A stretch of 64,000 nucleotides of DNA from Mobula hypostoma (lineage: Eukaryota), in contig NC_086107.1 in the NCBI RefSeq assembly GCF_963921235.1, positions 95,730,001 through 95,794,000 on the forward strand, given 5' to 3'. The notes below the pieces were generated by a model, which was not told the origin of the DNA, searched no databases, and saw nothing but the letters and a program-made list of their open reading frames with translations. Position 1 is the stretch's first letter. The number at the start of each line of letters is the position of its first letter. Below, in pieces: positions 1-51,100 of the stretch. The position numbers were made by a program, and so were the translations under genes.

Positions 1-2450
1 CCAAATTCCTGCTGCGTCTGTGGAAGATCCTGAGAATCTTCTGGAGAAGGGGGAAGATCCCAGAACAGTGGAGAGTGGCTGAAAGGGTGTGGATCCCGAA
101 GGAGGGAAAATGCCACCCAGATAGATCAGTTCCGCATCATCTCCCTGCTGTGTGTCGAGGGGAAGATCTTCTTCAGTGCAGTTTCTAACCGGCTGTGCAC
201 CTACCTAGCAAAGAACACCTATATTGATACATCAGTCCAGAAGGGTGGCATTTCAGGGATGCCGGGCTGTCTGGAGCACATCGGTGTGGTGACACAGCTC
301 ATCAGGGAGGCCAGAGAGAACAAGGGCAACCTGTCAGTGTTGTGGCTCGACCTGGCAAATGCATACGGCTCCATTCCGCACAAGCTGGTGCAGCTCACAC
401 TGACCAAATATCACGTCCCCAGCAGAATCAGAGACCTTATCGCCGATTATTACAGCAACTTCAGGATGAGGGTCTCTTCAGGAGCAATTACATCAACCTG
501 GCACAAGGTGGAGATCGGTATCATCACAGGGTGCACTATCTCAGTGACACTGTTCTCCCTCACCATGAACATGCTCACTAAGTCTGCTGAGCCAGAGTGC
601 AGAGCGCACAGAATGAATTCCGCTCAATGGCAACCACCTATCAGGGCATTCATGGATGACCTCACAGTCACCACAGAATCAGTCCCAGGCTGCCGGAGGA
701 TTCTGCAAGGGCTCGAAAAGCTGGTGGAGTGGGCCCGGATGCGTTTCAAACCTGCCAAATCAAGATTGATGTTGCTGAGGAAAGGGAAGGTGGAGAACAA
801 GTTCCGGTTCAGCATCGCAGGCACAGCCATCCCAACCATCACAGAAAAGCCAGTCAAGAGCTTAGGCAAAGTTTTTGACAGCTCTTTAAGGGACACAACA
901 TCCATCCAGGCAACCTGCACCGAGTTGGATGGCTGGCTGAAATCTGTGGACAAGTCGGGCCTACCTGGGAAGTTTAAAGCCTGGGTGTATCAGCATGGCA
1001 TTCTTCCCAGAATCCTGTGGCCCCTCCTCATCTATGCAGTTCCGATCTCGACAGTCGAAACCTTAGAGAGGAGGGTTAGCAACCACCTCAGGAGATGGCT
1101 GGGGCTGCCAAAGAGCCTGAGCAGCATCGCACTCTATGGACACCACAACAAACTGCAACTGCCCTTCAAATCCTTGGAGGAAGAATTCAAGGTAACAAGA
1201 GCCAGAGAAGTGCTACAGTATAGGGACTCAAGTGACCCGAAGGTGGCTAGAGCAGGGATCCAAGTAAGTACTGGCAGGAAGTGGAGGGCAGAGGAAGCTG
1301 TTCAGGAGGCAGAGGCGAGGCTGCGTCACAAGAGGCTGGTGGGAGTGGTCACACAAGGCCGAGCTGGGCTAGGATCCTTTCCAACTCCCGAAATGGACAC
1401 CAGAGGGAAGGAAAGGCGTCGTCTAGTTCAGGAAGTGGTGAAAGCAGTAGTGGAGGAGATAAGAACCTGCAAGGCGGTGGGAATGAAGCAACAGGGAGCT
1501 TGGACAAGATGGGAGAATGTGGTTGAGAGGAAAGTGACCTGGGCTGATTTTTGGAAAGCTGAACCACACCGCATCCAATTTCTCATCCAGGCAGTGTACG
1601 ATGCACTTCCAAGCCCATCAAACCTGCACACATGGGGCAAGGCGGAGTCATCTGCGTGCCCACTGTGCTCCAAGCGAGGAACCCTGGAGCACATCCTCAG
1701 CGGCTGTGCAAGGGCACTTGGTGAGGGACGGTACCGATGGAGGCATGATCAGGTCCTGAAGACCATCGCTGAAGCCGGAGTTGAGTGGGCGAAGCGGTCC
1801 CGACCCTCCAAGCAGACCATTGCCTTTATCAGAGCTGGGGAGCAGCCAATGCCTGCCAAAAGAACATCTGCAGGCACCCTGACCTCTGCAAGGGACTGGC
1901 AGCTGTTGGTGGACGTCAAAGGGCAGCTGAAGTTCCCCAACCATATCGCAGCCACCACCCTGCGACCAGACATTGTCCTAGTGTCTGAGTCGACTAAGCA
2001 AGTGGTGCTGCTGGAGCTGACAGTCCCATGGGAAGATAGCTTGGAGGAGGCCTTTGAAAGGAAGCTCTCCAAGTACGCAGGACTGGTCAGCAACTGTCAG
2101 CAGGCTGGATGGAGAGCGAGGTGTCTCCCAGTGAAGGTTGGTTGTAGGGGATTCGTAGCCCATTCTTTAGTTAGAGCCTTCAGCATTTTGGGTATTGAGG
2201 GAGAGAGGAAGAGGAGAGCCATCCGCGGTACCACCGATGCGGCAGAGAGGGCCTCAAGATGGCTGTGGCTCAAAAGAGGGGAGCCATGGAGTCATAAGTA
2301 GCTAGCCATCTGGACACAAGCTGGGGTCTGATCAGCCCCGGCTGAGTAACCTGGAGGAGGTTGTATGATGTTGAAAGACCCGAAACACCCGATGATTCCA
2401 GGAACATCACTGAAGATGTATCCAGAAACATCAATAGATGTATGTACACA
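1..2450 (+). mobile_element. RLE-type non-LTR retrotransposon (HERO/R2-group-like), 3' part with 3' UTR
   Basis: ORF 259-2301 carries RT, CCHC and restriction-like endonuclease motifs. RT-like coding continues to the window start, with a frameshift near 105. A short hairpin-rich 3' UTR follows the stop. Confidence 0.9.
259..2301 (+). CDS. Reverse transcriptase + CCHC zinc finger + restriction-like endonuclease (5'-incomplete)
   Basis: WLDLANAYGS, IITGCTIS, FMDD (RT); CPLC..TLEHILSGC (CCHC); RWRHD and RPDI..LELTVPWE (PD-(D/E)xK RLE). Confidence 0.9.
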   Translation: MPGCLEHIGVVTQLIREARENKGNLSVLWLDLANAYGSIPHKLVQLTLTKYHVPSRIRDLIADYYSNFRMRVSSGAITSTWHKVEIGIITGCTISVTLFSLTMNMLTKSAEPECRAHRMNSAQWQPPIRAFMDDLTVTTESVPGCRRILQGLEKLVEWARMRFKPAKSRLMLLRKGKVENKFRFSIAGTAIPTITEKPVKSLGKVFDSSLRDTTSIQATCTELDGWLKSVDKSGLPGKFKAWVYQHGILPRILWPLLIYAVPISTVETLERRVSNHLRRWLGLPKSLSSIALYGHHNKLQLPFKSLEEEFKVTRAREVLQYRDSSDPKVARAGIQVSTGRKWRAEEAVQEAEARLRHKRLVGVVTQGRAGLGSFPTPEMDTRGKERRRLVQEVVKAVVEEIRTCKAVGMKQQGAWTRWENVVERKVTWADFWKAEPHRIQFLIQAVYDALPSPSNLHTWGKAESSACPLCSKRGTLEHILSGCARALGEGRYRWRHDQVLKTIAEAGVEWAKRSRPSKQTIAFIRAGEQPMPAKRTSAGTLTSARDWQLLVDVKGQLKFPNHIAATTLRPDIVLVSESTKQVVLLELTVPWEDSLEEAFERKLSKYAGLVSNCQQAGWRARCLPVKVGCRGFVAHSLVRAFSILGIEGERKRRAIRGTTDAAERASRWLWLKRGEPWSHK

Positions 2451-5775: not shown

Positions 5776-6386
5776 TTCCCAGTGAATCTCCTTTCACAGC
5801 CCATTCAGGAAGAGTGTTCCATTTCACAACTCTCTGCCTGAAAACATCTTTTCCTGGCCTCAGCACCTTGTCCTCTGCCAATGGAATTAATTTATCTGTA
5901 TTCTTCTGGTACATTTCAGATTGTGGTGCCTCTGTAAATCTCCTTCACTGTTCAAAGAACAAACCCAACTTCCCCAGACTCTACACAGTCCTCTAAATCA
6001 TCTTTCCAACCCTACCCGTCCTCCTGACCCTTGCTCAGTTACATCACTCTGCTCTCTCTGTCCTTCCACCTTTTCCCCTTCTCTGACCCACATCCAATGC
6101 TCTCTCTTTCTTGCCCTCAACCTCCACTTGCCTCCTTTATTGTGCCCTCCCCTCCTTACCCCTATTCCAGCCCTTCCTTGACTCCCATTCCCTCTGATGC
6201 ACTGTCCCCCGCTGACCCATTCATTCCCAACGTTAACCCCCAACTGTTGACTGCTTGGACCACCCACTGCCCACACCCTCCTCTGCTGGGCCCCTTCTCT
6301 CTTACACACAGAGCGCCAAATCCATCAATCCAGAGCCACTGTTTGAAATTATAAGGTATACAAGCAGGTAGTGTGTTTAAGAGGAA

Positions 6387-6392
6387 TTTATT
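6387..6392 (-). terminator. Polyadenylation signal of the PTH-like gene
   Basis: AATAAA on the minus strand about 90 nt after the TAA stop at 6482-6480. Confidence 0.7.
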
Positions 6393-6479
6393 GGCGTTCA
6401 GGAGCGAATCAGAAGTGTGAGAACAGAGACACCACCTGTCCGCGCTGGATGTCCGTGCTCCCTTGGTCTCTCCACCGCT

Positions 6480-6493
6480 TTAACTATTACATC
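6480..6493 (-). CDS. PTH-like gene: terminal coding exon ((G)CNS-stop)
   Basis: Acceptor ctcttcttgtccag|GA TGT AAT AGT TAA after a 103-bp intron, followed by AATAAA. Confidence 0.7.
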
Positions 6494-8105
6494 CTGGACA
6501 AGAAGAGTCACGTTTTAGTTTGAGAACTTGTCTATATTCTGTTAAAAAGTGAGAAGTAATTTTGTAAAAGCAAAACAGTTACTATGTCACACTGACCTGG
6601 CATATCAGGCGTCAGTCGGCACAGTTTCTCCTTAATATATTGTCTGCGTGCTTCTTCTTCCCTCGCCTTTGCTATTTCGTTCATTAGCACAATTTCAGCA
6701 GTTTCCCTCTTTGCTGCCTCGTTGGGGCCTGGCTTCAGAAAATCAGCGAACCAGCCATCGGCTGGGAGCTCCTCAATTATCTGGGCCCTAGACGTGGACA
6801 AAAACAGCCATCCTGAGCCTGCCAGTGAGGGAATCAGGCCTTGCGGAGTACTGTCTGCAGGAAGGGAAGGGTAGGGCACGGTGTGTCTAAATGGTGGAGG
6901 GTGTCAAAGTTTTGAAAGATGAGGGAAGTGAGGAGGATGAGGAACTGGCACCAATGGTTGGTGGACCAGATTGCCCACTCACATTGCAGCCATGGGGACC
7001 CCTTCACTACTGGCCCTCCATTTCAGGAGCATCCACCCAGGGGAGATGTATTTTATTCGTACTGCCAGTGTCAGTTCATACCTCCCACAATACTGCCTCA
7101 TGTTCCTGCACACCTCCCTCAGTATTGTTCCCTGACACTACCCACCTCCCTCAGAAATGCACACAAAAGCACTACACCACTCCCTCAGAACTGCCCCCTC
7201 TACTGCCCATCTCCCTCAGAACTGCCCCTGACACTGCCCACCTCCCACAGTAATGCCCACCTGTTGCTGAACAGCTCCCTCAGTACCGAGCTCCGGCAGT
7301 AGCCACTTTCCTGACTAATGCCCCGGACACTTCCCTCCTCCCACAGTATTGCCCCAGACACTTATCACCATCCTCCCCCCCCACCCCCCTCAGTACTACA
7401 ACCGTACACTGTCCACCCTCCTCAGTAATGCACTCAAGACACTGCTTCCATCCCGCACTACTGCCCCTGACATTGACTAACTCCTGATTACAGCACCCCC
7501 GCAGAAACTACACACCACCCTCTTAATGGTCCTCCGTTGCTGATCACCTCCCTTGTTACTGCCTCGCCCCAAGTCTGCCCCACTCCCTCAGCCCCGTGCA
7601 TTTTCGGAGCAATGGAAACGTCCTGTAAATTCTTGGTTCCAACTCTCTCCCAGGAAACTGTGTTGGAAGTGTTTGGCTTTGTCAAGTGTCAGTCTGATGC
7701 TCTTCATAACAACTGACACGTGTCAATCACAGAGTGCCTGACGATGAGACAAATATCTCTGTCAGGGCCTGTTTTATGTCTCCCCTGGTTTCCCACAATG
7801 CACTTGGTTAGGCCCCCGAGGGATTCAACCACCTTTTTGTGAGTTAAGACCACCAGCACTTCCTCTCTCTTCTCGTGGACATGATCCAAGCTATCACTAT
7901 TCTCTCCCTGAATTCCCGAGCTCCCATGACCTTCTCCACATTTAATACAGACGGCACGTGGGCAACAACAACTGTTGCTGAGGGGATTTTACCTCTCTGA
8001 GTGTCGAGCCGAGGCAGGAACAGCTTCAGCACACGGGGGTAGGATACAGCTCAGTCCCAGTACCAGTCCCATCAGCAGCACTCGAGCATAGGACCAAGGC
8101 TCCAT
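6480..8105 (-). CDS. Parathyroid-hormone-family prepropeptide, 105 aa, spliced: join(8105-7993, 6787-6597, 6493-6480)
   Basis: Canonical GT-AG introns with pyrimidine tracts and matching phases (2, then 1). Protein: MEPWSYARVLLMGLVLGLSCILPPCAEA-VPASARHSERAQIIEELPADGWFADFLKPGPNEAAKR-ETAEIVLMNEIAKAREEEARRQYIKEKLCRLTPDMPGCNS*. Mature part matches PTH1-28 at E4, I5, L7, M8, K13, R20, K27, L28. Confidence 0.85.
6597..6787 (-). CDS. PTH-like gene: pro-region + KR + mature peptide exon
   Basis: Acceptor ctgtttttgtccacgtctag|G, donor CCAG|gtcagt; 191 bp. KR codons at 6711-6706; mature peptide starts at 6705. Confidence 0.85.
7075..7500. repeat. Degenerate C-rich tandem repeat in a PTH-like gene intron
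   Basis: Recurring cctccc(t/a)cagta..gcccc.gacact units. Confidence 0.6.
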
Positions 8106-8108
8106 GAC
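7993..8108 (-). CDS. PTH-like gene: signal-peptide exon (ATG at 8105-8103)
   Basis: Acceptor ttgtttctctcacag|GTCATGG (good Kozak context) and donor GAG|gtaaaa. Hydrophobic core VLLMGLVLGLSCIL and A-E-A cleavage motif. Confidence 0.85.
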
Positions 8109-9172
8109 CTGTGAGAGAAACAAGAAACAACGGCCTGAATGTTCGTTTCAGGCCCGCGGTAAAACACAGGGCAGGTTGGGGCTGCAGCTTGTGTGAAACC
8201 AGTGGAGTTACATTCTGCCAACGGGACTGGTTCTTCCTCAAGGATGTAGCTGGCAATCGTGGCTGATCCACTTTCCTCTCAACCCCATTCTCCTGGCCTC
8301 TTCCTATAACCTTTCATGCCCTAACTAATCATGAACCTATCAACCTCTGCCTTAAATACACCCAATGACCTGGCCTCCACAGCCACCTGTGGCAACGAAT
8401 TCCACAGATTTGTCATCGTCTAGTTACAGAAATTCCTCCTTATCTCTGTTCTAAATGAATGTCCCTCTATTCTGAGGTTGTGCCCTCTTGCTTGACCGTC
8501 CCCCACTATAGGAAACATCCTCTCCATATCCACTCTATCTAGGTCTTTCAATATTTAATGAGATCCCTCCTCATTCTTCTAAATTCCAGCGAGTTCAGGC
8601 CCAGAACCATCAAATTCATGAACTTCTGGCATAATACTACTGTTTTCCACAGTGAAGACTAATGCAAAATATTTATTTAGTTCATCTGTCATTCCTTTGT
8701 CCCCCATTACTACCTCTCCAGCATTATTTTCCAGTGGTCTGATATCTACTCTCGCCTCCCTTTTACTCTTTATGTATTTGAAAATAAAAAAAGTTTGATA
8801 TCCTCTTTGATATTATTGGCTTGCTTACCTTCATATTTCATCTTTTCCCTCCAGTAGGCTATTTAGTTGCCTTCTGTTGGTTTTTAAAAGCTTCCCACTA
8901 ATGTTTGTTCTATGATGTGCCCTCTCTTTTGCTTTTCTGATGGATTTGACTTCCCATGTCAGCCATGATTGTGTCATTTTGCCTTTAGAATACTACTTGT
9001 TTTTTGGGATACTGTATATCAAGCCTGTGTCTTCCAGATTGTTCTCAGAAACTCCAGCCATTGCTGCTCTGCCATCATCCCTGCTAGTGTTCCCTCCCAA
9101 TCAAATTTGGCCAGCTCCTCTCTCATGTCCCTGTAATTCCCTTAACTCCATAATACTGATACATTTGACTTT

Positions 9173-10708
9173 TGTCACAATGGGGCGGGGGCATACAGCG
9201 CAAGGGTGGACCCAAGTGCAAGACACATCTTGTGAGGTTAATTAAATTGAGTTTATTGTTTGATGCCAGGAGAGCAAAGCAGGAGCAGGAATAGCGAACC
9301 GGACAAGGACTCAGGACTACAACTAGGCTGGGACGAGGGTCTGGGCTACGACTCGGAATTGGATCCCAGAACTAGAGGCGACATGAAGAGGTTACAGTAT
9401 GGACTCCGAGCCAGGGACTGGGCAAGGACCCAGTACCTGGGTCTTGCCTCGGGCTTGGACCCCAGAACCAGGCATGGACATGACATGGGCTAGGGAGAGG
9501 AGGAACATGGAAAGACAGAGCCTCGATCTCAGCAGAGCAGGTACATGGAACCATGGACACATATACAGAACACAGAGTCGGGACCTCTCCTTGGGTACAG
9601 GACAAAAGGCTGGGACTCACACACAGAACAGAGAGCTGGGACCCCTCCTTGGGTACAGGACATAGGGCCGGGACCCATGACCCCCTGCAGGGCGATGGCA
9701 AGACGGCTTGACTTACCCCATGGAGGTGAGGACAAGACAAGACAAAACATAACCTACCGTGGGGCAACGGCAAGATGGCCAGACTTACCCCACGGAGGCG
9801 AGGACAAGACAAGACCAACACAAAAAAATACCGGACAGTACCTATCTAGCTCCGGCGATAGAACTAGACTGAAGTGCAGGCAAGGGCTGCAGACGAGGGC
9901 TAGAGGCGAGAGGGGCAGAGAAGGGATTCAGACAGGGCGGTAGGACAGGAATCACTGACCGCCAGGGCCAGGACTTGACTCGGAACTTGGATGCCGCCAG
10001 GGCTGGGACTCGACTCGGAACCGACTCGGAACTTGGATGCTGCCAGGGCCGGGGCTCGACTTGGAACTTGGATGCCGCCAGGGCAGGGAGTTGACTCGGA
10101 ACTTGGATGCCGCCAGGGACGGGACTTGACTCAGTACGTGGATGCCGCCAGGGCCAGCACTTGACTTGGAACTTGGATGCTGCCAGGGTCAGGACTTGAC
10201 TCGGTACATGGATGCTGCCAGGGCCAGAACTTGACTGGGTATTTGGATGCCCCCGGAGCCAGGACTTGACTTGGAGCCTCCGTTAGTGGTGAGCTCTCGA
10301 CTCGGCCCGGGAACAGTAGACAGCGGTTCTTGATTCCCTCCGGCAGGTTAACTGACGGACCCACCTCGGTGAGGAAACTTTGCAGGCTCGCTTTGGCGAG
10401 GTAACTTGACAGGGTTGCTCCGGTGAGGAAAGGCGAATTACCGGCACTCGCTTCGGGCGGACACTAGGCTTGCTCCAGCCAGATGACATTGGCACACCGT
10501 ACCTTTGGTGACTTTGCAAACACTCTCGCGCTGAACAGCTGAAAGCCGGAGACTATAAACTACCGGTTCAGTCGAGAGTAAATTGCCTCCAATCACCAAA
10601 GCCGAGGGACACAGGAAAACAGGGAATCAAAGGGAAACAGGGAGTCAACGATCCAGATCATAACATAAACAAAGTAAATTGAAAGGGACCCCAATCCAGA
10701 CCATGACA
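9173..10708. mobile_element. Solo LTR (Gypsy-like)
   Basis: Termini TGTCA...TGACA with a perfect 5-bp target-site duplication ACTTT (9168-9172 and 10709-10713). Confidence 0.8.
9960..10275. repeat. ~35-bp tandem repeat inside the solo LTR
   Basis: About 9 units of ggacttgactcggaacttggatgccgccagggcc. Confidence 0.85.
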
Positions 10709-11911
10709 ACTTTAGTTTCTCCCTCTCAAATTTCTGGGTGAATTCTGTCATATTATGATCACTGCCTCCTAAGGGTCCCTTTACCTAAAGCTCTCTAATC
10801 AAATCCTGTCCATTACAGAAAACCCAATCCAGAATAGCTGATCCCCTCGTGGGCTCAACCACAAATTGCTCTAAAAAGCCATGTCATAAGCATTCTTCAA
10901 ATTCTCTCTTGAGATCCAGCACCAACCTAGTTTTCCCAATCTACCTGCATATTACAGTCCCCCATGACTATTGTAACATTGCCCTTTTGACATGCCTTTT
11001 CTATCACCCATTGTAATTTGCAGCCAACTTCCTGACTACTTTTCAGTGGCCTCTATATAACTCCCACGAGGGTCTTTTTACCCTTGCAGTTTCTTATTTC
11101 TACCTACAAGGATTCTATATCTTCCAATCCTATGTCACCTCTTTCTAAGGATTTAATTCCATTTTTTACCAACAGAGCCCTGCCACCCCTCTGCTGATTT
11201 GCCTGACCTTTTGATACACTGTGGATTCTTGGATGTTAAACTCCCAGCTATAATCTTCTTTCAGCCATGACTCAGTGATGCCCACAGCATCATACCTGCC
11301 AATCTCTAAGTGCATACAAGATCATCTACTTTATTCCATAAACTGCATGCCTTCAATTATAATGCCTTCAGTTCTGTATTCATCATCCTTTTCAATTTTT
11401 TCCCCATGTTACATTTCAACTAGTCCCACTGACTGCGATTTTGTCGTAACATCTGCCTGTCCTTCCTCACAGTCTCACTACACACTGTTTGTGCTTGTAT
11501 ATCAACTGCCCCATCCTCATCCCTATGACTCTGGTTTTCACCGCCCTGTAAAATTAGTTTAAACCCTCCCCAACACCTCTAGCAAACCTGTCCACAAGGT
11601 CCCTCTCGGGTTCAGGTGTAGCCCATTTCTTTTGTACAGGTCATATATTCCCCAGAAGGGATACCAATAATCCAGAAATATGAACCCCTGCCCTCTGCAC
11701 CAGTTCCTCAACCACACATTAATCTGCCAAATCATCCTATTCTTACATGGCACAGGCAGCAATCCAGAGATTACTACCCTGGAGGTCCTGTTTTTCAGCT
11801 TTCTACCTAACTCCCTAAACTTTCTTGTCAAGAATTCCTCCCTTTTCCTACCCATGTCATTGGTGCCAATATGTACTATGACTGCCCCTTTAGAACACTG
11901 TGGAGCTGATT

Positions 11912-12217
11912 GTGTTGGCACGTGGTCAAGTGGTTAAGGCATCGGTCTAGTGATCTGAAGGTCGTTAGTTCGAACCTCAGCTGAGGCAGTGTGTTGTGTC
12001 CTTGAGCAAGGCACTGAAATACACATTGCTCTGCGACGACACTGGTGCCAAGCTGTATTGGCCCTAGTGCCCTTGCCTTGGTCAACATCGGTGGCGTGGA
12101 GAGGGGAGACTTGCAGCATGGGCAACTGCCAGTCTTCCATACAACCTTGCCCAGGCCTGCGCCCTGGAAACCTTCCAAGGTGCAAGTCCATGGTCTCACG
12201 AGACTAGCAGATGCCTT
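11912..12217 (+). mobile_element. tRNA-derived SINE (family A)
   Basis: A box TGGTCAAGTGG, B box GTTCGAAC, body tgtgtccttgagcaaggcac. Five copies in the window. Confidence 0.85.
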
Positions 12218-17060: not shown

Positions 17061-17890
17061 TGTCCAATCTCTTCCCATAACTGATGCGTGCCAATGCAGA
17101 GAACATCTTGGCGAATCTTGTCTTCACTCTCCCCGTTGTAATCACATCTTTCCTAATAGGTAGCCAGCAGGACTGCGCACAATGCTCCAAGTACACCCTA
17201 ACCAGCGTCTTGTAAAGTTCTGATAGAACAAGCCATCTCTGGTACTCTGTGATCTGACCTATGAAGACTAGCATGTTGCTTGACTTCACCATCCCATCTA
17301 CCTGTGTCTGTACAGGCCCCACCAAGCCCAGAAGTAACCCATTGACCCAAAGATCTCCCTCCTATACCAGCTCTGTAGCTGCAAGATTATGAGTCTGATT
17401 CTCCTTTTTCCATCCTCACCAACATGTGGAATGTGGAGTAATCTTGAGATTACATCTCAGAGATCCTGCCTAACACCCAAAATTCATTCTGCAGGACCTC
17501 GTCCCTCTATCTACATCATCTGTCCCAAAGTGCTTTAAGGCTTTGGCAATTCTCCGTCCCTTGCAGAACATTCTGTTCCTGATCTGAGACATTCCCAACT
17601 TTGGCACCAGGGTTGAGGTCTGAACCTCAGACACAGAGGGGCCTGTGTGTTCCCCGACAAACTAACAATGCTTTATTAAATAAAAAAGCTTGGTGATTGC
17701 CTGTATTGGAGTCTATTATCTCATGTAGGCAGATGAGCTCAGGCTGAACTACGCAATGGCACAGGACATTTGGTCACAGCCTACAATTCTTCAGGACAAA
17801 TGCACTGATATTATGTACTACGTGTCCTAGAGTATGCCTATCACTGGTCTGCTGTGGATATTTTATAACAGTTCCAATTTCTGTCTCCAG

Positions 17891-20744
17891 CTGGAGGTAT
17901 CTACATAGTCATTCAAACAAACGCAAAGTTCACGACAGACAAATGGCAAGAGAATTAGAAACATAGAAACATAGAAAATAGGTACAGGAGTAGGCCATTT
18001 GGCCCTTCGAGCCTGCACCGCCATTCAGTATGATCATAGCTGATCATCCAACTCTGAACCCTGTACCAGCCTTCCCTCCATACCCCCTGATCCCTTTAGC
18101 CACAAGGGCCATATCTAACTCCCTCTTAAGTATAGCCAATGAACTGGCCTCAACTGTTTCCTGTGGCAGAGAATTCCATAGATTCACCACTCTCTGTGTG
18201 AAGAAGATTTTCCTCATCTTGGTCCTAAAAGGCTTCCCCTTTGTCCTTAAACTGTGACCCCTCGTTCTGGACTTCCCCAACATCGGGATCAATCTTCCTG
18301 CATCTAGCCTGTCCAATCGCTTTAGGATTTTATACGTTTCAATAAGATACCCCCTCAATCTTCTAAATTCCAGCGAGTATAAGCCTAGTCGATCCAGTCT
18401 TTCATCATATGAAAGTCCTGCCATCCCAGGAATCAATCTGGTGAACCTTCTTTGTACTCCCTCTATGGCAAGAATGTCTTTCCTCAGATTAGGGGACCAA
18501 AACTGCACACAATACTCCAGGTGTGGTCTCACCAAGGCCTTGTACAACTGCAGTAGTACCTCCCTGCTCTTGTACTCGAATCCTCTTGCTATGAATGCCA
18601 GCATACCATTCGCCTTTTTCACCACCTGCTGTACCTGCATGCCCACTTTCAATGACTGGTGTATAATGACACCCAGGTCTCATTGCACCTCCCCTTTTCC
18701 TAATTGGCCCCCATTCAGATAATAATCTGTTTTCCTGTTTTTGCCACAAAAGTGGATAACCTCACATTTATCCACATTAAATTGCATCTGCCATGAATTT
18801 GCCCACTCACCTAACCTATCCAAGTCACCCTGCATCCTCTTAGCATCCTCCTCACAGCTAACACTGCTGCCCAGCTTCGTGTCATCCGCAAACTTGGAGA
18901 TGCTGCATTTAATTCCCTCATCTAAGTCATTACTATATATTGTAAACAACTGGGGTCCCAGCACTGAGCCTTGCGGTACCCCACTAGTCACTGCCTGCCA
19001 TTCTGAAAAGGTCCCGTTTATTCCTACTCTTTGCTTCCTGTCTGCCAACCAATTCTCTATCTACATCAATACCATTCCCCCAATACCGTGTGCTTTAAGT
19101 TTGCACACTAATCTCCTGTGTGGGACCGTGTCAAAAGCCTTTTGAAAATCCAAATATACCACATCCACTGGTTCTCCCCCATCCACCCTACTAGTTACAT
19201 CCTCAAAAAATCCTATGAGATTCGTCAGACATGACTTTCCTTTCACAAATCCATACTGACTTTGTCCGATGATTTCACCACTTTCCAAATGTGCTGTTAT
19301 CACATCTTTGATAACTGACTCTAGCATTTTCCCCACCACCGACGTTAGGCTAATCGGTCTATAATTCCCCGGTTTTTCTCTCCCTCCTTTTTTAAAAAGC
19401 GGGGTTACATTAGCCACCCTCCAATCCTCAGAAACTAGTCCAGAATCTAAAGAGTTATGAAAAATTATCACTAATGCATCCACTATTTCTTGGGCCACTT
19501 CCTTAAGCATTCTGGGATGCAGACCATCTGGCCCTGGGGATTTATCTGCCTTTAATCCCTTCAATTTACCTAATACCACTTCCCGACTAACATGTATTTC
19601 CCTCAGTTCCCCCATCTCACTAGACTCTCGGTCCCCTACTATTTCCGAAAGGTTATTTATGTCCTCTTTAGTGAAGACAGAACCAAAGTAGTTATTCAAT
19701 TGGTCTGCCATGTCCTTGTTCCCCATGATCAATTCACCTGTTTCTGACTGTAAGGAACCTACATTTGTCTTAACCAAACTTTTTCTTTTCACATATCTAT
19801 AAAAGCTTTTACAGGTTCCCTGCCAGTTTTCTCTCGTAATTTTTTTTTTCCTTTCCTAATCAGATTTCCTCGTGTTTGAGATTTACCAGGGTACTGCCTG
19901 GTTTAGCGGGTATGGATTTTGATCAGAGATTAAGGGAGCTAGGGCTTTACTCTTTGGAGAGGAGGAGGATGATAGGATACATGATAGAGGTGTACAAGAT
20001 ATTAAGAGGAATAGATAGAGTGGATAGCCTTCGCCTCTTCCCCAGGGCACCACTGCTCAATACGAGGGGACATGGCTTTAAGGTAAGGGGTGGGAAGTTC
20101 AAGGGGGATATTAGAGGAAGGTTTTTTACTCAGAGAGTGGTTGGTGCGTGGAATGCACTGCCTGAGTCAGTGGTGGAGGCAGATACACTAGTGAGGTTTA
20201 AGAGACTACTAGACAGGTACATGGAGGAATTTAAGGTGGGGGGTTATATGGGAGTCAGGGTTTCAGGGTCGGCACAACATTGTGGGCTGAAGGGCCTGTA
20301 CTGTGCTGTACTATTCTATGTTAAACCCTTTGTCCTCTTCTGCTGGACTCTGAATTTCTCCCAGTCCTCAGGTGTGCTGCTTTTTCTGGCTAACTTGTAT
20401 GTTTCTTCTTTGGAATTGATACTATCCCTAATTTCCCTCGTCAGCCATGGGTGCACTACCTTCCCTGGTTTATTCTTTTTCCAAACTGGGATGAACAATT
20501 GTTGTAGTTCATCCATGCGATCTTTAAATGCTTGCCATTGCATATCCACCATCAACCCTTTAAGTATCATTTGCCAGTCTATCTTAGCTAATTCATGTCT
20601 CATACCTTCAAAGTTCCCTCCTCAAAATTATGTGCTGATGGGTCCATATTTTGGTGTGATGTCAGAACGCTGGTGCAGCTGGTGGACCCACAGAACCCTG
20701 CTATCAGACGCACCGTTGACTCAATAAACTCCAAGCACAGTAAG
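17891..20744 (+). pseudogene. GYS: Glycogen synthase pseudogene, exon-2 equivalent, split by a CR1 insertion (17891-17957 and 20626-20744)
   Basis: Acceptor tttctgtctccag|; GGIYIVIQTNAKFTTDKWQENY/VLMGPYF, frameshift, DVRTLVQLVDPQNPAIRRTVDSINSKHSK, versus recalled GYS1 [49 protein letters not shown]. Donor is mutated (AAG|ct). AATTA flanks the insertion on both sides. Confidence 0.9.
17958..20620 (-). mobile_element. CR1 LINE (5'-truncated ORF2) with a nested opposite-strand CR1 3' end at ~19877-20320
   Basis: ORFs 19061-19792, 18680-19048 and 18044-18652 carry RT motifs (YLDFQKAFD, GVPQGSVLGP, FADD); (TTCTATGT)n tail. Confidence 0.92.
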
Positions 20745-21049
20745 CTACCATGTGCCTTTATTTATTTCATTTGATTTAGTGATACAGTGTGGAGTAGGCC
20801 CTTCTGCCCCTCCGAGCCATGCTGCCCCAACAACCCCGATGAACCCTAACCTACTCACGGGACAATTTACAATGACCAAGTAACCTACTTAGTATGTTTT
20901 TGGATGGTGGGAAGGAACCCAGGGAAGACCCATGCGTTCCGCAGGGAGGATGTGCAGACTCCTTACGGAATGGCACTGGAGTTGAACTCTGACCTCTGGA
21001 ATGCCCCCAGCTGCAATAGCATCGTGCTATTGGGAGGGGGGTAAGACCT

Positions 21050-28189: not shown

Positions 28190-29420
28190 TGCATTATGAT
28201 ATGCAAGGAGGAGATTGGCAAGCTCCTGATTCAGCGTCAGTGCAGTGTGTTCTGCCAACATTTCTCACAGTGCGTTCTTTAGACTCTGGACAAACTTTCT
28301 GCCAAACCATGGTACGGTGCAGATGTAATGTGTCTAATTCCATTCATTTTCAGGAATGGCTGGAACTGCTCCTCAACAAACTGTGGTCCATTTTGCGCAC
28401 CAGATCTTGTAAAGAGGCCTCTCAACACATCTACAGTGTGTGAGGCTGTTGGGCACACTTCTGGCCACTTTGTAGCTGCATCCATTACTGCCAAGAAATT
28501 TGTGCCCATGAATGGTCCAACAAAATCCACATGTGTTATCTGCCAGGGCAATGCAGGCCATTCCCAGGGATGGACAGGGCAGCTCTTGGCATCTTTTGTG
28601 AAGTGTTGGCATCTCAACCAGTGCATGACAAACAGTTCGATCTGCTGATCTATCCCAGGCCACCAGACAAAGCTTTGAACCAACAAAAATGGCTGTCTAG
28701 TAGCTCCTCCAGCACTTTAGGTCCCGGTTTGGATGGTAATGACAACTCTCAATTCTCCGCATAAGGCAAACCCCAACAAGGCCAAGTTCATCCTGGCACT
28801 GATTTGCATCAGGGAGAATGTATCAAGAGGAATGTCCTCTTTTGTAAATTTTTCAGGTATTTCCTTTTCTAAGGATAGACAGGACAATCCATAGGCATTT
28901 CCATGATTAGTTGTCCTCTTGAATCCAATCTTGTAATTGCATCCTCCAAGAAACAGAGCCCATCTCTGCATTTGTGTTGTTGCTGTTGGTGGAATTCTGT
29001 GGATTGAAACTGGACACTTGTGGTTGGTCAGTAATGAGCATAAACTCTCTCCATACAAGTACTGGTTGAAACGTTTTACACCCCAAACCAAACTCAAGGC
29101 TTCTCCATCGATCTGTTCATAACTTTTCTCTGCAGCGGTAAAGGAACGTGATGCAAAAGGCTCTGGGGCATTCACTTCCATCACTCATAACACGTGACAT
29201 GGTGGCGCCTATACATTTGGTATAGATATAGGCACTTTCACAGGCAAGTTTCACTGGATGATGTGGATAATAATGTGTCAGTACTGTGTCTGATATCGCC
29301 ATTTCCTTTATCTTTTGGAAAGCCACCTCACACTGCTTTGTCCATTGCCATTTCTTCCCAATCTGTAGTAATGAGTTGAAGGGGTAGAACACAGTCGCTA
29401 ATTTGGCAGGAACCTGTTCT
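28190..29420 (-). mobile_element. Gypsy pol fragment (RNase H + integrase), decayed
   Basis: FASRS...EKSYEQIDGEALSLVWGVKRF; VWWPGID, HVDFVGPF, NGIRHITSAPYH. Confidence 0.85.
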
Positions 29421-30344
29421 ATATTCCATGTTCTGTGTGGTGTTATAGAAAGGATGTCAATAAGCAAGAAAGAGTGGAAAGAAGACTTGTGAACTTGAGG
29501 GCCTGACTTAAAGGGAAAGATTGGGCAGACAAGGATTTTAAGCCTTGGAGCATACGAGACAGAAATGTTACCTTACAGAGGTCTATAAAACCATGAGGGA
29601 CAGAGATGAGTGAACACACACAGACTTTTCCCAGGGAAAAGGGAAACAAAGACTGGAAAACATGTGTTTAACTTGAGAAGAAAAAGATTTAAAAGGGACT
29701 CGGGGTGGGGGGGGGGAGTCAACTTCTTTAAGCAGTGGCTGGTGAGTATATGGAATGAGCTGTCAGGAAGTGGTTGAGGCAGATACAATAATAACATTCA
29801 AAAGGCACCTGGACAGGTACGTGGATAGGAAATGTTTAGAGGAATATGGTCATCTTGGATGAGTTGGGCCAAAGGGCCTGTTTCTGTGCTGTATAAGTCT
29901 ACATCTCCATCCTTTCTCCCTCTGTCTGCCCTTTCCTCTGCTGCTGTAACCATCATTTGTGCCTTTGTTACCTGGAGCTGACTGTTTTAGCCACCCTCCT
30001 TCTTCCCTCCATCTCAAGAGGTCCTGCCACCCAGCCCTCTAATTCCCATCACCATTTACACATCTTATCCCTCTCCTCACCAATCCTCATCATTCCTGGT
30101 TCAGCAGAGCCTCAGTTTTAAAATTACTATCCTTGATTTTCCGAATCCTCTCTGATCTCTTTGCTCCGTCAGGCCACAAATTCTCCATGATTTCTCGCCT
30201 CTCTTGATTCTGGGCTCTGAACATCTCCAAATGTCAGTCCCCAGGACCCGTGAACTGGGATTCCCACCCCAATCCTCTCAGATGCTCCTGAAATGCCAAA
30301 GTTCCAAACAGTGCCTTATCAGAAATGGAAGGATGTTAACACAC

Positions 30345-30494
30345 ATCTGAAAGGTTGTTGTAGAAATTAGCATTCCCAACACACAGGTACCGTCCCAGCA
30401 ACATGGCGTGTGTTGTAAAGATTGTGGCCACAGGAATATTGTGGAATCTGCACATGATGATAAATGGACAATTTTCCTTACACTGGGAAACAAA
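30345..30494 (-). pseudogene. GYS: Glycogen synthase pseudogene, exon-4 equivalent with an in-frame deletion
   Basis: ttttgcttttcag|[50 protein letters not shown]|gt matches recalled [29 protein letters not shown]. The conserved AHFHEWLAGVGL block is missing. Confidence 0.9.
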
Positions 30495-30660
30495 CTGAAA
30501 AGCAAAAGCATCGGGTTAGACGTGGATAGAAAACAGTGCTACAGAATTAGAACACACTGTAGAATACAGTACAGCACAGAGATTAAGCTAGTAATTAAAT
30601 ACCTAAGTAAACTGGTCTACTTGGACAATGCCTCAGCAATCTCATTTCTTGCCTTCCACA

Positions 30661-41866: not shown

Positions 41867-44483
41867 ATAGAACATAGAAAACTTACAGCACAATACAGGC
41901 CCTTCAGCCCACAAAGCTGTGCCGAACATGTCCTTACCGTAGAAATTACTAGGCTTACCATAGCCCTCTATTTTTCTAAGCTCCATGTACCTATCCAGGA
42001 GTCTCTTAAAAGACCCTATTGTATCCAACTCCACCACCGTTGCTGGCAGCCCATTCCACGCACTCACCACTCTCTGCATAAAAAACTTACCCCTGACATC
42101 TCCTCTGTACCTACTTCCAAGCACCTTAAAACTGTGCCCTCTCACGCTAGCCATTTCAGCCCTTGGAAAAAGCCTCTGACCGTCCACACGATCAATGCCT
42201 CTCATCATCTTATACACCTCTATCAGGTCACCTCTCATCCTCTGTCGCTCCAAGGAGAAAACATAGAAACATAGAAAATAGGTGCAGGAGTAGGCCATTC
42301 GGCCCTTCGAGCCTGCACCGCCATTTATTATGATCATGGCTGATCATCCAACTCAGAACCCAGCCTTCCCTCCATACCCCCTGACCCCTGTAGCCACAAG
42401 GGCCATATCTAACTTCCTTTTAAACATAGCTAATGAACTGGCCTCAACAGTTTGCTGTGGCAGAGAATTCCACAGATTCACCACTCTCTGTGTGAAGAAG
42501 TTTTTCCTAACCTCGGTCCTAAAAGGCTTCCCCTCTATCCTCAAACTGTGATCCCTCGTTCTAGACCTCCCCAACATCGGGAACAATCTTCCCGCATCTA
42601 GCCTGTCCAATCCCTTTAGGATCTTATACGTTTCAATCAGATCCCCCCTCAATCTTCTAAATTCCAACGAGTACAAGCCCAGTTCATCCAGTCTTTCTTC
42701 ATATGAAAGACCTGCCATCCCAGGAATCAATCTGGTGAACCTTCTTTGTACTCCCTCTATGGCAAAGATGTCTTTCCTCAGATTAGGGGACCAAAACTGC
42801 ACACAATACTCCAGGTGTGGTCTCACCAAGGCCTTGTACAACTGCAGTAGTACCTCCCTGCTCCTGTACTCAAATCCTCTCGCTATAAATGCCAGCATAC
42901 CGTTCGCCTTTTTCACCGCCTGCTGTACCTGCATGCCCACTTTCAATGACTGGTGTATAATGACACCCAGGTCTCGTTGCACCTCCCCTTTTCCTAATCG
43001 GCCACCATTCAGATAATAATCTGTTTTCCTATTTTTGCCACCAAAGTGGATAACTTCACATTTATCCACATTAAATTGCATCTGCCATGAGTTTGCCCAC
43101 TCACCCAACCTATCCAAGTCACCCTGCATCCTCTTAGCATCCTCCTCACTGCTAACACTGCCACCCAGCTTCGTGTCATCCGCAAACTTGGAGATGCTGC
43201 ATTTAATTCCCTCATCCAAGTCATTAATATATATTGTAAACAACTGGGGTCCCAGCACTGAGCCTTGCGGTACCCCACTAGTCACCGCCTGCCATTCTGA
43301 AAAGGTCCCGTTTATTCCCACTCTTTGCTTCCTGTCTGCTAACCAATTCTCCACCCACACCAATACCTTACCCCCAATACCGTGTGCTTTAAGTTTGCAC
43401 ACTAATCTCCTGTGTGGGACCTTGTCAAAAGCCTTTTGAAATTCCAAATATACCACATCCACTGGTTCTCCCCTATCCACTCTACTAGTTACATCCTCAA
43501 AAAATTCTATGAGATTCGTCAGACATGATTTTCCTTTCACAAATCCATGCTGACTTTGTCCGATCATTTCACCGCTTTCCAAATGTGCTGTTATCACATC
43601 CTTGATAACTGACTCCAGCAGTTTCCCCACCACCGACGTTAGGCTAACCGGCCTATAATTCCCCGGTTTCTCTCTCCCTCCTTTTTTAAAAAGTGGAGTT
43701 ACATTAGCCACCCTCCAATCCTCAGGAACTAGTCCAGAATCTAACGAGTTTTGAAAAATTATCACTAATGCATCCACTATTTCTTGGGCCACTTCCTTAA
43801 GCACTCTGGGATGCAGACCATCTGGCCCTGGGGATTTATCTGCCTTCAATCCCTTCAATTTACCTAACACCACTTCCCTACTAACATGTATTTCGCTCAG
43901 TTCCTCCATCTCACTGGACCCTCTGTCCCTTACTATTTCTGGAAGATTATTTATGTCCTCCTTAGTGAAGACAGAACCAAAGTAATTATTCAATTGGTCT
44001 GCCATGTCCTTGCTCCCCATAATCAATTCACCTGTTTCTGTTTGCAGGGGACCTACATTTGTCTTTATCAGTCTTTTCCTTTTTACATATCTATAAAAGC
44101 TTTTACAGTCCGTTTTTATGTTCTCTGCCAGTTTTCTCTCATAATCTTTTTTCCCCTTCCTAATTAAGCCCTTTGTCCTCCTCTGCTGAACTCTGAATTT
44201 CTCCCAGTCCTCAGGTGAGCCACTTTCTCTGGCTAATTTGTATGCTTCTTCTTTGGAATTGATACTATCCCTAATTTCTCTTGTCAGCCACGGGTGCACT
44301 ACCTTCCTTGATTTATTCTTTTGCCAAACTGGGATGAACAATTGTTGTAGTTCATCCATGCAACCCAAGTTCACTCGACCTGTTCTCATAGGCATGCTCC
44401 CCAATCTAGGCAACATCCTTGTAAATCTCCTTTGCACCCTTTCTATGGTTTCCACATCCTTCCTTTGGTGAGGCGACCAGAAC
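41867..44483 (-). mobile_element. Nested CR1s: a young 5'-truncated CR1 (~42258-44362, open RT frame) inserted into another CR1 3' fragment
   Basis: ORF 42353-44518 has complete RT motifs. Its N-terminus (FWSPHQRKDVETIERVQRRF) belongs to the host CR1, which resumes at 42257-41867. Confidence 0.9.
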
Positions 44484-44912
44484 TCATCTCCTTCTACCTT
44501 AGGCCATGAACTTATCAATCACCCCTGATGAGTTATTAACTTCGAACTTTCTGCATAATCATTCAAAGAGTTGAACTGCACATGCATGTAACTCATATAA
44601 CTCATTTCCTTCTACCTTACGCCACAAACTTGTCAATCACCTCTGCTGTGGACACCTTCTGGAGGTCTAAGATCGTATGCTCTACGACCACTGGACTTAG
44701 TGTGTAAATGTAGGAGGGGACTATGTTGAAAAATAAAAGAGCTAGGTTTTCTAAAATTGACTCCTTCTACCTTAGGCCACAAACCTATCAATCACCCCTT
44801 GTGTGTAGTTTAGCACCCCCATTATTTTTTTTGTAATTAACATTTTATTTATATTAGTGTTACTTAAATTTATTGGTGAGATACTGTTTTTTTAAATTGT
44901 ATTTACCCTGTC

Positions 44913-48173: not shown

Positions 48174-51100
48174 AACATAGAACATAGAATACTACAGCAC
48201 AGTACAGGCCCTTCGTCCCACAATGTTGTGCCGACCCTCAAACCCTGCCTCCCATATAAGCCCCCACCTTAGATTCCTCCATATACCTGTCTAGTAGTCT
48301 CTTAAACTTCACTAGTGTATCTGCCTCCACCACTGACTCAGGCAGTGCATTCCACGCACCAACCACTCTCTGAGTAAAAAACCTTCCTCTAATATCCCCC
48401 TTCAAATTCCCACCCCTTACCCTTAAAGCCATGTCCTCTTGTATTGAGCAGTGGTGCCCTGGGGAAGAGGCGCTGGCTATCCACTCTATCTATTCCTCTT
48501 ATTATCTTGTATACCTCTATCATGTCTCCTCTCATCCTCCTTCTCTCCAAAGAGTAAAGCCCTAGCTCCCCTAATCTCTGATCATAATGCATACTTTCTA
48601 AACCAGGCAGCATCCTGGTAAATCTCCTCTGTACCCTTTCCAATGCTTCCACATCCTTCCTGTAGTGAGGCAACCAGAACTGGACACAATACTCCAAGTG
48701 TGGCCTAACCAGAGTTTTATAGAGCTGCATCATTTCCTCGCGACTCTTAAACTCTATCCCTCCACTTATGAAAGCTAACACCCCATAAGCTTTCTTAACT
48801 ACCCTATCCACCTTTGAGGCAACTTTCAGCGATCTGTGGACATGTACCCCCAGATCCCTCTGCTCCTCCACACTACCAAGTATCCTGCCATTTACTTTGT
48901 ACTCTGCCTTGGAGTTTGTCCTTCCAAAGTGTACCACCTCACACTTCTCCGGGTTGAACTCCATCTGCCACTTCTCAGCCCACTTCTGCATGCTATCAAT
49001 GTCTCTCTGCAATCTTTGACAATCCTCTACACTATCTACAACACCACCAAACTTTGTGTCATCTGCAAACTTGCCAACCCACCCTTCTACCCCCACATCC
49101 AGGTTGTTAATAAAAATCACAAAAAGTAGAGGTCCCAGAACAGATCCTTGTGGGACACCCCTAGTCACAATCCTCCAATCTGAATGTACTCCCTCCACCA
49201 CCACCCTCTGCCTTCTGCAGGCAAGCCAATTCTGAATCCACCTGGCCAAACTTCCCTGGATCCCATGCCTTCTAACTTTCTGAATAAGCCTACCGTGTGA
49301 AACCTTGTCAAATGCCTTACTAAAATCCATATAGATCACATCCACTGCACTACCCTCATCTATATGCCTGGTCACCTCCTCAAAGAACTCTATCAGGCTT
49401 GTTAGACACAATCTGCCTTCACAAAGCCATGCTGACTGTCCCTATCAGACCATGATTCTCTAAATGCCTATAGATCCTATCTCTAAGAATCTTTTCCAAC
49501 AGCTTTCCCACCACAGTGAGTAAGGCTCACTGGTCTGTAATTACCCGGACTATCCCTACTACCTTTTTTGAACAAGGGAACAACATTCGCCTCCCTCCAA
49601 TCCTCTGGTACCATTCCCGTGGACAACGAGGAATTAAAGATCCTAGCCAGAGGCTCAGCAATCTCTTCTTTCGCCTCGTAGAGCAGCCTGGGGAATATTC
49701 TGTCAGGCCCCAGGGACTTATCTGTCCTAATGTATTTTAACAACTCCAACACCTCCTCTCCCTTAATGTCAACATGCTCCAGAACATCAACCTCACTCAT
49801 ATTGTCCTCACCATCATCAAGTTCCCTCTCATTGGTGAATACTGAAGAGAAGTATTCATTGAGGACCTCGCTCACTTCCACAGCCTCCAGGCACATCTTC
49901 CCACCTTTATCTCTAATCGGTCCTACCTTCACTCCTGTCATCCTTTTTTTCTTCACATAATTGAAGAATGCCTTGGGGTTTTCCTTTACCCTACTTGCCA
50001 AGGCCTTCTCATGCCCCCTTCTTGCTCTTCTCAGCCCCTTCTTAAGCTCCTTTCTTGCTTCCCTATATTCCTCAATAGACCCTTGCTTCCTAAACCTCAT
50101 GTATGCTGCCTTCTTCCACCTGACTAGATTTTCCACCTCACTTGTCACCCATGGTTCCTTCACCCTACCATTCTTTATCTTCCTCACCGGGACAAATTTA
50201 TCCCTTACATCCCGCAAGAGATCTCTAAATATCGACCACATGTCCATAGTACGTTTCCCTGCAAAAACATCATCCCAATTCACACCCGCAAGTTCCAGCC
50301 TTAAAGCCTCATAATTTGCCTTTCCCCAATTAAAAATTTTCCTGTCCTCTTTGATTCTGTCCTTTTCCATGATAATTATAAAGGCTAGGGAGCGGTGGTC
50401 ACTGTCCCCCAGATGCTCACCCACTGAGAGATCTGTGACCTGACCCGGTTCATTACCTAGTACTAGATCTAGTATGGCATTTCCCCTGGTCGGCCTGTCC
50501 ACATACTGTGACAGGAATCCATCCTGGACACACTTAACAAACTCTGCCCCATCTAAACCCTTGGAACTAATCAGGTGCCAATAAATATTAGGGAAGTTAA
50601 AGTCACCCATGATAACAACCCTGTTATTTTTGCACCTTTCCAAAATCTGCCTCCCAATCTGCTCCTCTGTATCTCTGCTGCTACCAGGGGGCCTATAGAG
50701 TAACTGCTCCCTTCCTGTTCCTGACTTCCACCCATACTGACTCAAAAGAGGATCCTGCTACATTACCCAGCCTTTCTGTAGCTGTAAGAGTATCCCTGAC
50801 CAGTAATGCCACCCCTCCTCCATTTTTTCCACCCTCTCTATCCCTTTTAAAGCACTGAAATCCAGGAATATTGAGAATCCATTCCTGCCCTGGTGCCAGC
50901 CAAGTCTCTGTAATGGCCACTACATCATAATTCCATGTACATATCCAAGCTCTCAGTTCATCACCTTTGTTCCTGATGCTTCTTGCATTGAGGTACATAC
51001 ATTTCAGCCCTTCTACCTTACTGTCTTTACACCGTTTATTCTGCTTCTCTTTCCTCAAAGCCTCTCTGTATGTTAGATCTGGCTTTACTCCATGCACTTC

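Follow-up and report, generated by a model that had tools for sequence, protein, structure and literature searches.

The closest described counterparts of the gene reported here are the genes for parathyroid hormone (PTH) and its relatives. The elephant shark has PTH, PTH-related protein (PTHrP), PTH-L (its Pth2) and TIP39 (PMC4354418 and another review), and reviews derive the four genes of the family from two vertebrate genome duplications. Six residues (V2, Q6, H9, R20, L24 and L28) are conserved from fish to mammals in PTH, PTHrP and PTH-L, and positions 8–10 of the family read M-H-N, L-H-D or M-H-D (PMC3009671), M-H-D being carried by all elephant-shark PTH peptides (PMC4354418). In PTH-type genes, elephant-shark pth2 included, an intron lies directly before Lys-Arg (PMC4354418), and the final exon of chicken and human PTHrP codes for the last two or three residues together with the 3′ untranslated region (UTR) (PMC3009671). 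The loci are marked by their neighbours: ARNTL and BTBD10 by PTH, MRPS35 by PTHrP and SRSF3 by PTH-L (PMC3009671). Here we describe a spliced gene for a 105-residue peptide precursor on the minus strand of a 64,000-nucleotide stretch of Mobula hypostoma contig NC_086107.1 (positions 95,730,001 to 95,794,000, the whole of which we call the window). The specific reading that we favour, at a probability of roughly 40%, makes this gene a quickly diverging branch of the PTH family that is confined to one lineage.

Structure and transcription of the gene

The coding part of the gene and its predicted product occupy the following positions of the window.

7993–8108, minus strand: first coding exon, with 3 nucleotides of 5′ UTR after the acceptor cacag/GTC, codons 1–37 and 2 nucleotides of codon 38
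6788–7992, minus strand: intron 1, 1205 nucleotides, GT..AG, phase 2
6597–6787, minus strand: coding exon 2, 191 nucleotides, with the rest of the pro-region, Lys-Arg and residues 1–36 of the C-terminal peptide
6494–6596, minus strand: intron 2, 103 nucleotides, GT..AG, phase 1
6375–6493, minus strand: terminal exon, which completes a Gly codon and continues with Cys-Asn-Ser, TAA, 3′ UTR and AATAAA
8022–8105, minus strand: predicted signal peptide, codons 1–28 (heuristic)
6706–6711, minus strand: Lys64-Arg65, the sole Lys-Arg pair in the precursor and the proposed prohormone-convertase site, at which cleavage is predicted
6597–6705, minus strand: residues 1–36 of the proposed 40-residue mature peptide, whose last four residues lie in the terminal exon

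Joined from the three coding exons, the frame comprises 318 nucleotides, that is, 105 codons and a stop. Its start ATG (8105–8103) has G at both −3 and +4, and the 113-nucleotide coding part of the first coding exon (8105–7993) ends in GAGAG/gtaaaa, with the GT donor after 7993. Coding exon 2 is flanked by a pyrimidine-rich acceptor (tctag/) and a donor (/gtcagt); the terminal exon is preceded by the acceptor tgtccag/, contributes 6493–6480 to the coding sequence with TAA at 6482–6480, and has its AATAAA hexamer at 6392–6387. An earlier note on this DNA had proposed three exons with these splice sites, this ATG context, the AATAAA and a 105-residue precursor, and all of them are as read in the sequence. 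No second copy of either exon peptide (37 residues from the first coding exon, P0002; 63 residues from coding exon 2, P0001) was found by tblastn across the window. Intron 1 contains a 31-nucleotide minisatellite of 4.8 copies at 7106–7258.

Splicing was examined in public sequencing runs. Eighteen runs were listed, 14 of them with part of the stretch, and four were aligned to positions 6000–10500: X9 from organism A and X13 from organism B, both guessed to be RNA, together with two DNA runs, X5 from organism B and X11 from organism C. The RNA nature of X9 and X13 is a guess only, and it is their spliced contigs, not the run label, that count as evidence. Organism A bears the species label shared with the DNA runs that match the window best, and organisms A and B are about 2–3% apart. 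One 560-letter contig in X9 skips 6492/6596 and 6786/7992, and one 568-letter contig in X13 skips the same two places. The skipped stretches have CT..AC ends on the plus strand, which correspond to GT..AG on the minus strand. The cut positions carry a +1 ambiguity, and when it is allowed for, the skips are the predicted junctions (7993/6787 and 6597/6493), each found in one spliced contig per run and in two species. X5, the DNA run of organism B, yielded no contig with exon joints; contiguous contigs cover 6000–7849 and 7820–8175, with one contig only on each exon, so that run's DNA contigs do not contain the spliced form. X11 covers only intron pieces at 7364–7748 and repeats, with no exon coverage.

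Both spliced contigs stop matching the window at 8108, at the acceptor cacag/GTCATG, and continue beyond it for 163 (X9) and 112 (X13) letters that were found nowhere within 6000–10500. At least one non-coding 5′ exon therefore lies upstream, outside 6000–10500, and the gene has at least four exons, the first of them non-coding. At the other end, the X13 contig reaches 6375, 12 nucleotides beyond the AATAAA hexamer. The gene has an intact frame, and it is transcribed and spliced in two species.

The N-terminus of the precursor consists of Arg8, a hydrophobic core at residues 9–22 and then P-P-C-A-E-A/V, and Kyte-Doolittle means over nine residues are 2.0–2.8 over residues 7–15. On these heuristics, the 28-residue signal peptide that had been proposed fits both the hydrophobicity profile and the −3/−1 rule for a cut after Ala28 (A-E-A/V). 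The pro-region measures 37 residues. The 40-residue peptide that would be released has a net charge of −1 and cysteines at positions 29 and 38 (C-x8-C). AlphaFold2, run without an alignment, modelled one long helix over residues 21–58 of the 63-residue exon peptide, with a mean predicted local distance difference test score (pLDDT) of 95–97 over its residues 31–50 and of 55–64 over its first 20 residues. The hydrophobic moment of residues 1–28 of the 40-residue peptide at 100 degrees is 0.04, against a shuffle mean of 0.21, so the helix lacks a single continuous amphipathic face. Sequence and splicing agree with the earlier description of an intact precursor in which a single Lys-Arg precedes a C-terminal 40-residue peptide, which the structure model makes helical. 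The generic features of a prohormone precursor are all present (spliced mRNA, intact frame, signal sequence, dibasic site), from which processing and secretion are predicted, and we regard it as highly probable that this is a real secreted-prepropeptide gene.

Coding exon 2 of the X9 contig shows no differences from the window. For organism B, the X5 contig over 6000–7849 has 44 letter differences and 32 gap letters in 1850 positions, and the three pieces of the X13 contig compare with the window as follows.

7992–8108 (117 letters): 5 differences
6596–6786 (191 letters): 6 differences and 30 extra letters
6375–6492 (118 letters): 3 differences

Six coding differences between organisms A and B were listed with their positions.

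8041: L22P, end of the signal
6758: D48A, pro-region
6752: W50L, pro-region
6735: K56E, pro-region
6727: synonymous (Gly58), pro-region
6664: synonymous (Ala79), 40-residue peptide

Five further differences (four in 7992–8108 and one in 6596–6786) were counted without a listed position. The 30 extra letters in exon 2 of organism B are in frame (10 codons) and are present in both the X13 and X5 contigs. Non-synonymous changes make up four of the six listed differences and all fall in the signal or pro-region; the single listed difference in the 40-residue peptide is synonymous. A fast-changing signal and pro-region, an in-frame change of length and no listed replacement in the peptide suggest the usual pattern of a hormone precursor.

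Resemblance to the PTH family and competing explanations

With the register fixed by the Lys-Arg site, the 40-residue peptide aligns without gaps to PTH(1–28) with 8 identities in 28 (positions 4, 5, 7, 8, 13, 20, 27 and 28) and a BLOSUM62 sum of 38, both counted by hand. The PTH letters used were those quoted in the earlier note and come from no database; against them, the 8 of 28 reported there is correct. Over 1,000,000 random orders of a partner of the same composition, the mean was 2.0 identities, the probability of at least 8 identities was 2.5e-4, and that of a BLOSUM62 score of at least 38 was 2e-6, an imprecise value resting on two events. Among 46,154 distinct natural 28-mers, drawn from a narrow pool (the glycogen synthases that were fetched and window frames of at least 100 residues), 2 reach 8 identities and the top score is 25. 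The comparison suggests a match to PTH(1–28) that is rarer than chance easily gives, and it is not decisive. Human PTHrP in the same register shares 5 identities with a positive sum.

The layout of the gene and precursor also recalls the family. The tiny last coding exon with its 3′ UTR resembles the terminal exon of PTHrP genes, and the order known from PTH genes, in which exons for the signal and the hormone follow a non-coding 5′ exon, is likewise implied here. As in PTH, PTHrP and PTH-L, the precursor would begin with a signal peptide and a pro-region, residue 1 would be immediately preceded by a dibasic site at which cleavage is predicted, and the first 28–34 residues, helical in those hormones, are likewise predicted to be helical. 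The peptide keeps R20 and L28 of PTH and has Tyr at 23 and Ile at 24.

A series of findings weighs against placing the gene in the PTH family. The claim is carried by one short hand-counted alignment; both null models ignore the helical periodicity common to unrelated helical hormones, and a free choice among about 100–300 hormone sequences brings the corrected significance to roughly 1e-3 to 5e-2. Two of the six family-conserved residues are identical (R20 and L28) and one is conservative (I24), with T2, V6 and N9 replacing V2, Q6 and H9, and positions 8–10 of the peptide are M-N-E. Lys-Arg is separated from the coding intron by 28 codons, and another intron interrupts the frame 4 codons ahead of the stop. 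Unlike PTH, PTHrP and PTH-L, the precursor has a 37-residue pro-region with its intron far upstream of Lys-Arg, and the peptide ends at 40 residues with a C-x8-C ring; no PTH-family peptide is known to have a C-terminal disulfide ring. The four described genes already fill the set expected in the elephant shark, and the present gene would be a fifth. With so few differences listed between organisms A and B, purifying selection cannot be demonstrated, and the exons overall are no more conserved than the mostly intronic stretch of the X5 contig.

Searches for relatives point the same way. A Pfam-A hmmscan of the two exon peptides found no family at E ≤ 10, the Parathyroid model that the earlier note had named for a check included, and phmmer against all PDB chains at E ≤ 10 found no PTH, PTHrP or TIP39 chain for the 63-mer or the 36-mer. 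The 63-mer matched a ribosomal protein only (E = 1.7) and the 36-mer nothing; a 28-residue match of about 20 bits could easily escape both kinds of search. The longer stop-to-stop frames that hold the exons gave no Pfam family at E ≤ 0.01. Among 5.8 billion protein clusters, none of 34–111 residues shares three 5-residue words with the 63-residue peptide; among proteins of 112–2000 residues, 89 word-sharing candidates were scored against it and none reached E ≤ 1. A phmmer search over 1.84 billion representatives, a library described as drawn from the same proteins as the clustered collection, gave no match at E ≤ 0.001. The sensitivity of these searches for relatives corresponds to roughly at least 45% identity over 63 residues. 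No relative was found though the collections include shark and ray proteomes, as is evident from the matches of a neighbouring exon in Hemitrygon, Mobula, Chiloscyllium, Scyliorhinus, Cetorhinus, Rhincodon and Rhinoraja. The ESM Atlas returned no usable match for the 63-mer or for its residues 26–63, and Foldseek with the single-sequence model gave no match in the PDB at E ≤ 10, a lone helix being uninformative. A full-text search of the literature found no occurrence of a 25-residue stretch of the peptide, and a literature search on catshark parathyroid hormone found nothing relevant. The reading in the earlier note is supported in part, and membership of the PTH family is unproven: the anchored similarity to PTH(1–28) favours it, while the lack of profile or database recognition, the 2 of 6 conserved residues, M-N-E and the intron position count against it.

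The same observations could come from an orphan gene, restricted to its lineage, for a secreted peptide or a small helical protein whose resemblance to PTH reflects chance or the convergence of charged amphipathic helices, an explanation that we hold to be about as probable as the PTH-family reading. Its product may be cut at Lys-Arg or may stay a 77-residue secreted protein, with a reproductive, immune or gland-specific role. That neither Pfam, the PDB sequence search, Foldseek nor the ESM Atlas named a family is what such a peptide would give, as is the lack of a homologue in the 5.8 billion clusters or the 1.84 billion representatives, ray and shark proteomes included. The rapid change of signal and pro-region between two close species, the 10-codon difference in length and the outright absence of three of the six family-conserved PTH residues fit it as well. 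A urocortin-type peptide, compared by eye with the offset left free, reaches about 7 identities in 31, so matches of this size are not unique among helical hormones. Chance or convergence accounts less readily for a register-fixed match to PTH(1–28) that is rare under both nulls, for its falling on the receptor-docking positions R20, 23, 24 and 28, and for a gene layout resembling those of PTH and PTHrP. Quite unlikely, in our judgement, is that the gene is a functionless frame in a young or decaying transcript of a degenerate region, its secretory look being fortuitous. Transposon debris and a dead glycogen synthase surround it, the collections searched contain no homologue, and the exon differences between organisms A and B (5/117, 6/191 and 3/118 letters) are not lower than the 44/1850 of the X5 DNA contig. 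A 105-codon frame over three exons with a textbook signal sequence, splicing conserved in two species, an indel that is in frame and the absence of any listed non-synonymous change in the 40-residue peptide nevertheless argue for function.

Less likely still is that the gene is the one-to-one orthologue of a known paralogue, unannotated in the present species, whether PTH-L/PTH4 (elephant-shark Pth2) or TIP39/PTH2. According to PMC4354418, Pth2 of the elephant shark, a cartilaginous fish, is a divergent PTH-like gene, and its 1–34 peptide raises no cyclic AMP through PTH1R; both points would suit such an origin. Unlike the present gene, however, with its M-N-E and its intron 28 codons upstream, Pth2 carries M-H-D, has its intron directly before Lys-Arg and groups with PTH-L (PMC4354418, PMC3483286). 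The motif and the intron position make the orthology to elephant-shark Pth2 that the earlier note had raised unlikely. TIP39 and PTH-L are conserved enough to have relatives that Pfam detects, yet there was no match at E ≤ 10, and the peptide likewise resembles none of the annotated shark or ray proteins. TIP39 would suit by its size, by the C-terminal position of its peptide and by its residue pattern: a precursor of about 100 residues with a peptide of about 39 residues at the extreme C-terminus, which is without the V2/Q6/H9 set and keeps an Arg-Arg-x-aromatic-aliphatic stretch. In contrast to TIP39, the present peptide has a Cys ring, and it has no Pfam match; a comparison by hand also suggests that its best register is the PTH one and not the two-residue-shifted TIP39 one. 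Insect iPTH, an invertebrate neuropeptide assigned to an orthologue of the PTH receptor (PMC7224569), is unrelated to the present peptide by any test that we ran and serves as context only.

Further families were weighed and set aside, each for a mismatch of motif or cysteine pattern together with the lack of a Pfam match. Secretoglobins, whose genes resemble this one in having three exons, one of them of about 190 nucleotides, were rejected on these grounds, as were apolipoprotein C-I or A-II-like proteins. The peptide has an osteocalcin-like C-x-L-x-P-D stretch but is without the E-x-x-x-E-x-C motif of Gla proteins, and its ring equals that of melanin-concentrating hormone in size but is without R-V-Y. 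It is also without the F-W-K of urotensin II and somatostatin and the amidation signal of the CRH/urocortin family, and its net charge of −1 speaks against the frog ‘Rana-box’ antimicrobial peptides.

Surroundings of the gene

We scanned 407 stop-to-stop frames of at least 58 residues in the window against Pfam, in batches of 18, 142, 145 and 102 frames that gave 7, 4, 6 and 3 frames with a match, respectively. One frame only belonged to a host-gene family (Glycogen_syn, 30339–30515, minus strand, E = 1.3e-13). Three frames had weak matches below the cutoff (DUF4222, Trm112p and a TT_ORF2-like family), which are taken as chance. The 16 other matching frames were retrotransposon domains (RVT_1, endonuclease, GDSL esterase, integrase, RNase H and one ALKBH8_N, the last of which is a domain common in fish retrotransposons). 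With ray and shark ‘muscle-like’ proteins as queries, tblastn found three glycogen synthase fragments only in the window.

17887–17955, plus strand: glycogen synthase fragment, found by tblastn
20623–20768, plus strand: glycogen synthase fragment with a frame shift
30345–30575, minus strand: glycogen synthase fragment of opposite orientation to the other two, with 13 residues of a conserved stretch deleted

Nothing beyond residue 233 of the query proteins, which are 808–915 residues long, was found in the window by tblastn. The glycogen synthase is a dead gene, either a pseudogene or a rearranged partial duplicate. With transposon debris and a broken glycogen synthase around it, the gene is intact amid decayed sequence, as had been claimed for it. 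Proteins of polypterids, coelacanth, lungfish, amphibians and reptiles fall into the ‘muscle-like’ class of hits as well, and because that class spans these groups the long ‘muscle-like’ glycogen synthase may be a third vertebrate GYS paralogue. Human GYS1 lies about half a megabase from PTH2 at 19q13.33, and 12p carries both GYS2 and PTHLH. A PTH-like gene with a glycogen synthase relic as its neighbour would be in keeping with a GYS-linked PTH paralogon. None of the synteny markers ARNTL, BTBD10, MRPS35 and SRSF3 was found within the 64-kb window.

The retrotransposon frames are placed as follows.

34–2301, plus strand: retrotransposon frame
42353–44518, minus strand: retrotransposon frame
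48389–50757, minus strand: retrotransposon frame
11562–11933, minus strand: retrotransposon frame
51145–51495, minus strand: retrotransposon frame
28282–29572, minus strand: retrotransposon frame

They include reverse-transcriptase frames of 755 and 721 residues, an endonuclease and reverse transcriptase pair, and a remnant of integrase and RNase H of the long terminal repeat type. Two GDSL-esterase frames are of the kind found in the first open reading frame of some fish long interspersed nuclear elements (LINEs). A very-high-copy repeat at 8265–8566, continuing to about 10500, starts about 150 nucleotides upstream of the first coding exon. From position 8265 upward, contig pieces accumulate on the repeats in their thousands; the summed contig depth over 8265–8566 is about 687,000 in X5, versus 3.8 on the exons, and this repeat is abundant in the RNA-like runs too. 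It is probably a short interspersed nuclear element or the tail of a LINE. A 35-nucleotide tandem array of 8.7 copies also lies upstream of the gene, at 9959–10275. Observed over expected CpG is 0.33, and Rfam found no family over the whole window. This CpG depletion and the best matches of the neighbouring exon suggest a vertebrate genome rich in retrotransposons, probably that of an elasmobranch.

Proposed action of the peptide and its meaning

We propose that the product of the gene would be processed and would act as follows. Signal peptidase would remove about 28 residues, and a prohormone convertase would cut after the single Lys-Arg at residues 64–65. The freed 40-residue C-terminal peptide would form a helix of about 28–30 residues, followed by a 10-residue ring closed by a disulfide between Cys29 and Cys38, and would act extracellularly as a signalling ligand. 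As a fast-diverging member of the PTH family, the peptide would keep the layout anchored at the N-terminus and the face of Arg20, aromatic 23, aliphatic 24 and Leu28 that docks on the extracellular domain of a class-B PTH receptor, and it would have lost V2, Q6 and H9, N-terminal residues tied to classical activation of PTH1R. By analogy and given its altered N-terminus, the peptide may behave like Pth2 on PTH1R.

The gene is probably no simple counterpart of any PTH paralogue already described; as a member of the family it would be an additional and strongly altered copy. A fuller proposal, which we consider doubtful, is that it represents a fifth branch of PTH ligands, carried by elasmobranchs, in which a PTH-type docking helix is combined with an altered activation end and a disulfide ring newly gained at the C-terminus. 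This branch would have arisen by local duplication in a GYS-linked PTH paralogon, with later decay of the co-duplicated glycogen synthase, and its product would act on one of the three cartilaginous-fish PTH receptors as an agonist of changed profile or as a natural antagonist.

Reviews treat the PTH family as a closed set of four ohnologues from two genome duplications. A transcribed fifth ligand-like gene in cartilaginous fish, if the PTH link is true, would reopen the co-evolution of the ligands with the three PTH receptors. It would also provide a natural peptide in which the docking face is kept and the activation end is changed, which would be useful for receptor pharmacology. Even without the PTH link, the gene is a candidate for a peptide hormone with RNA support and no homologue in the collections searched, and small secreted-peptide genes of this kind may be missed in such genomes.

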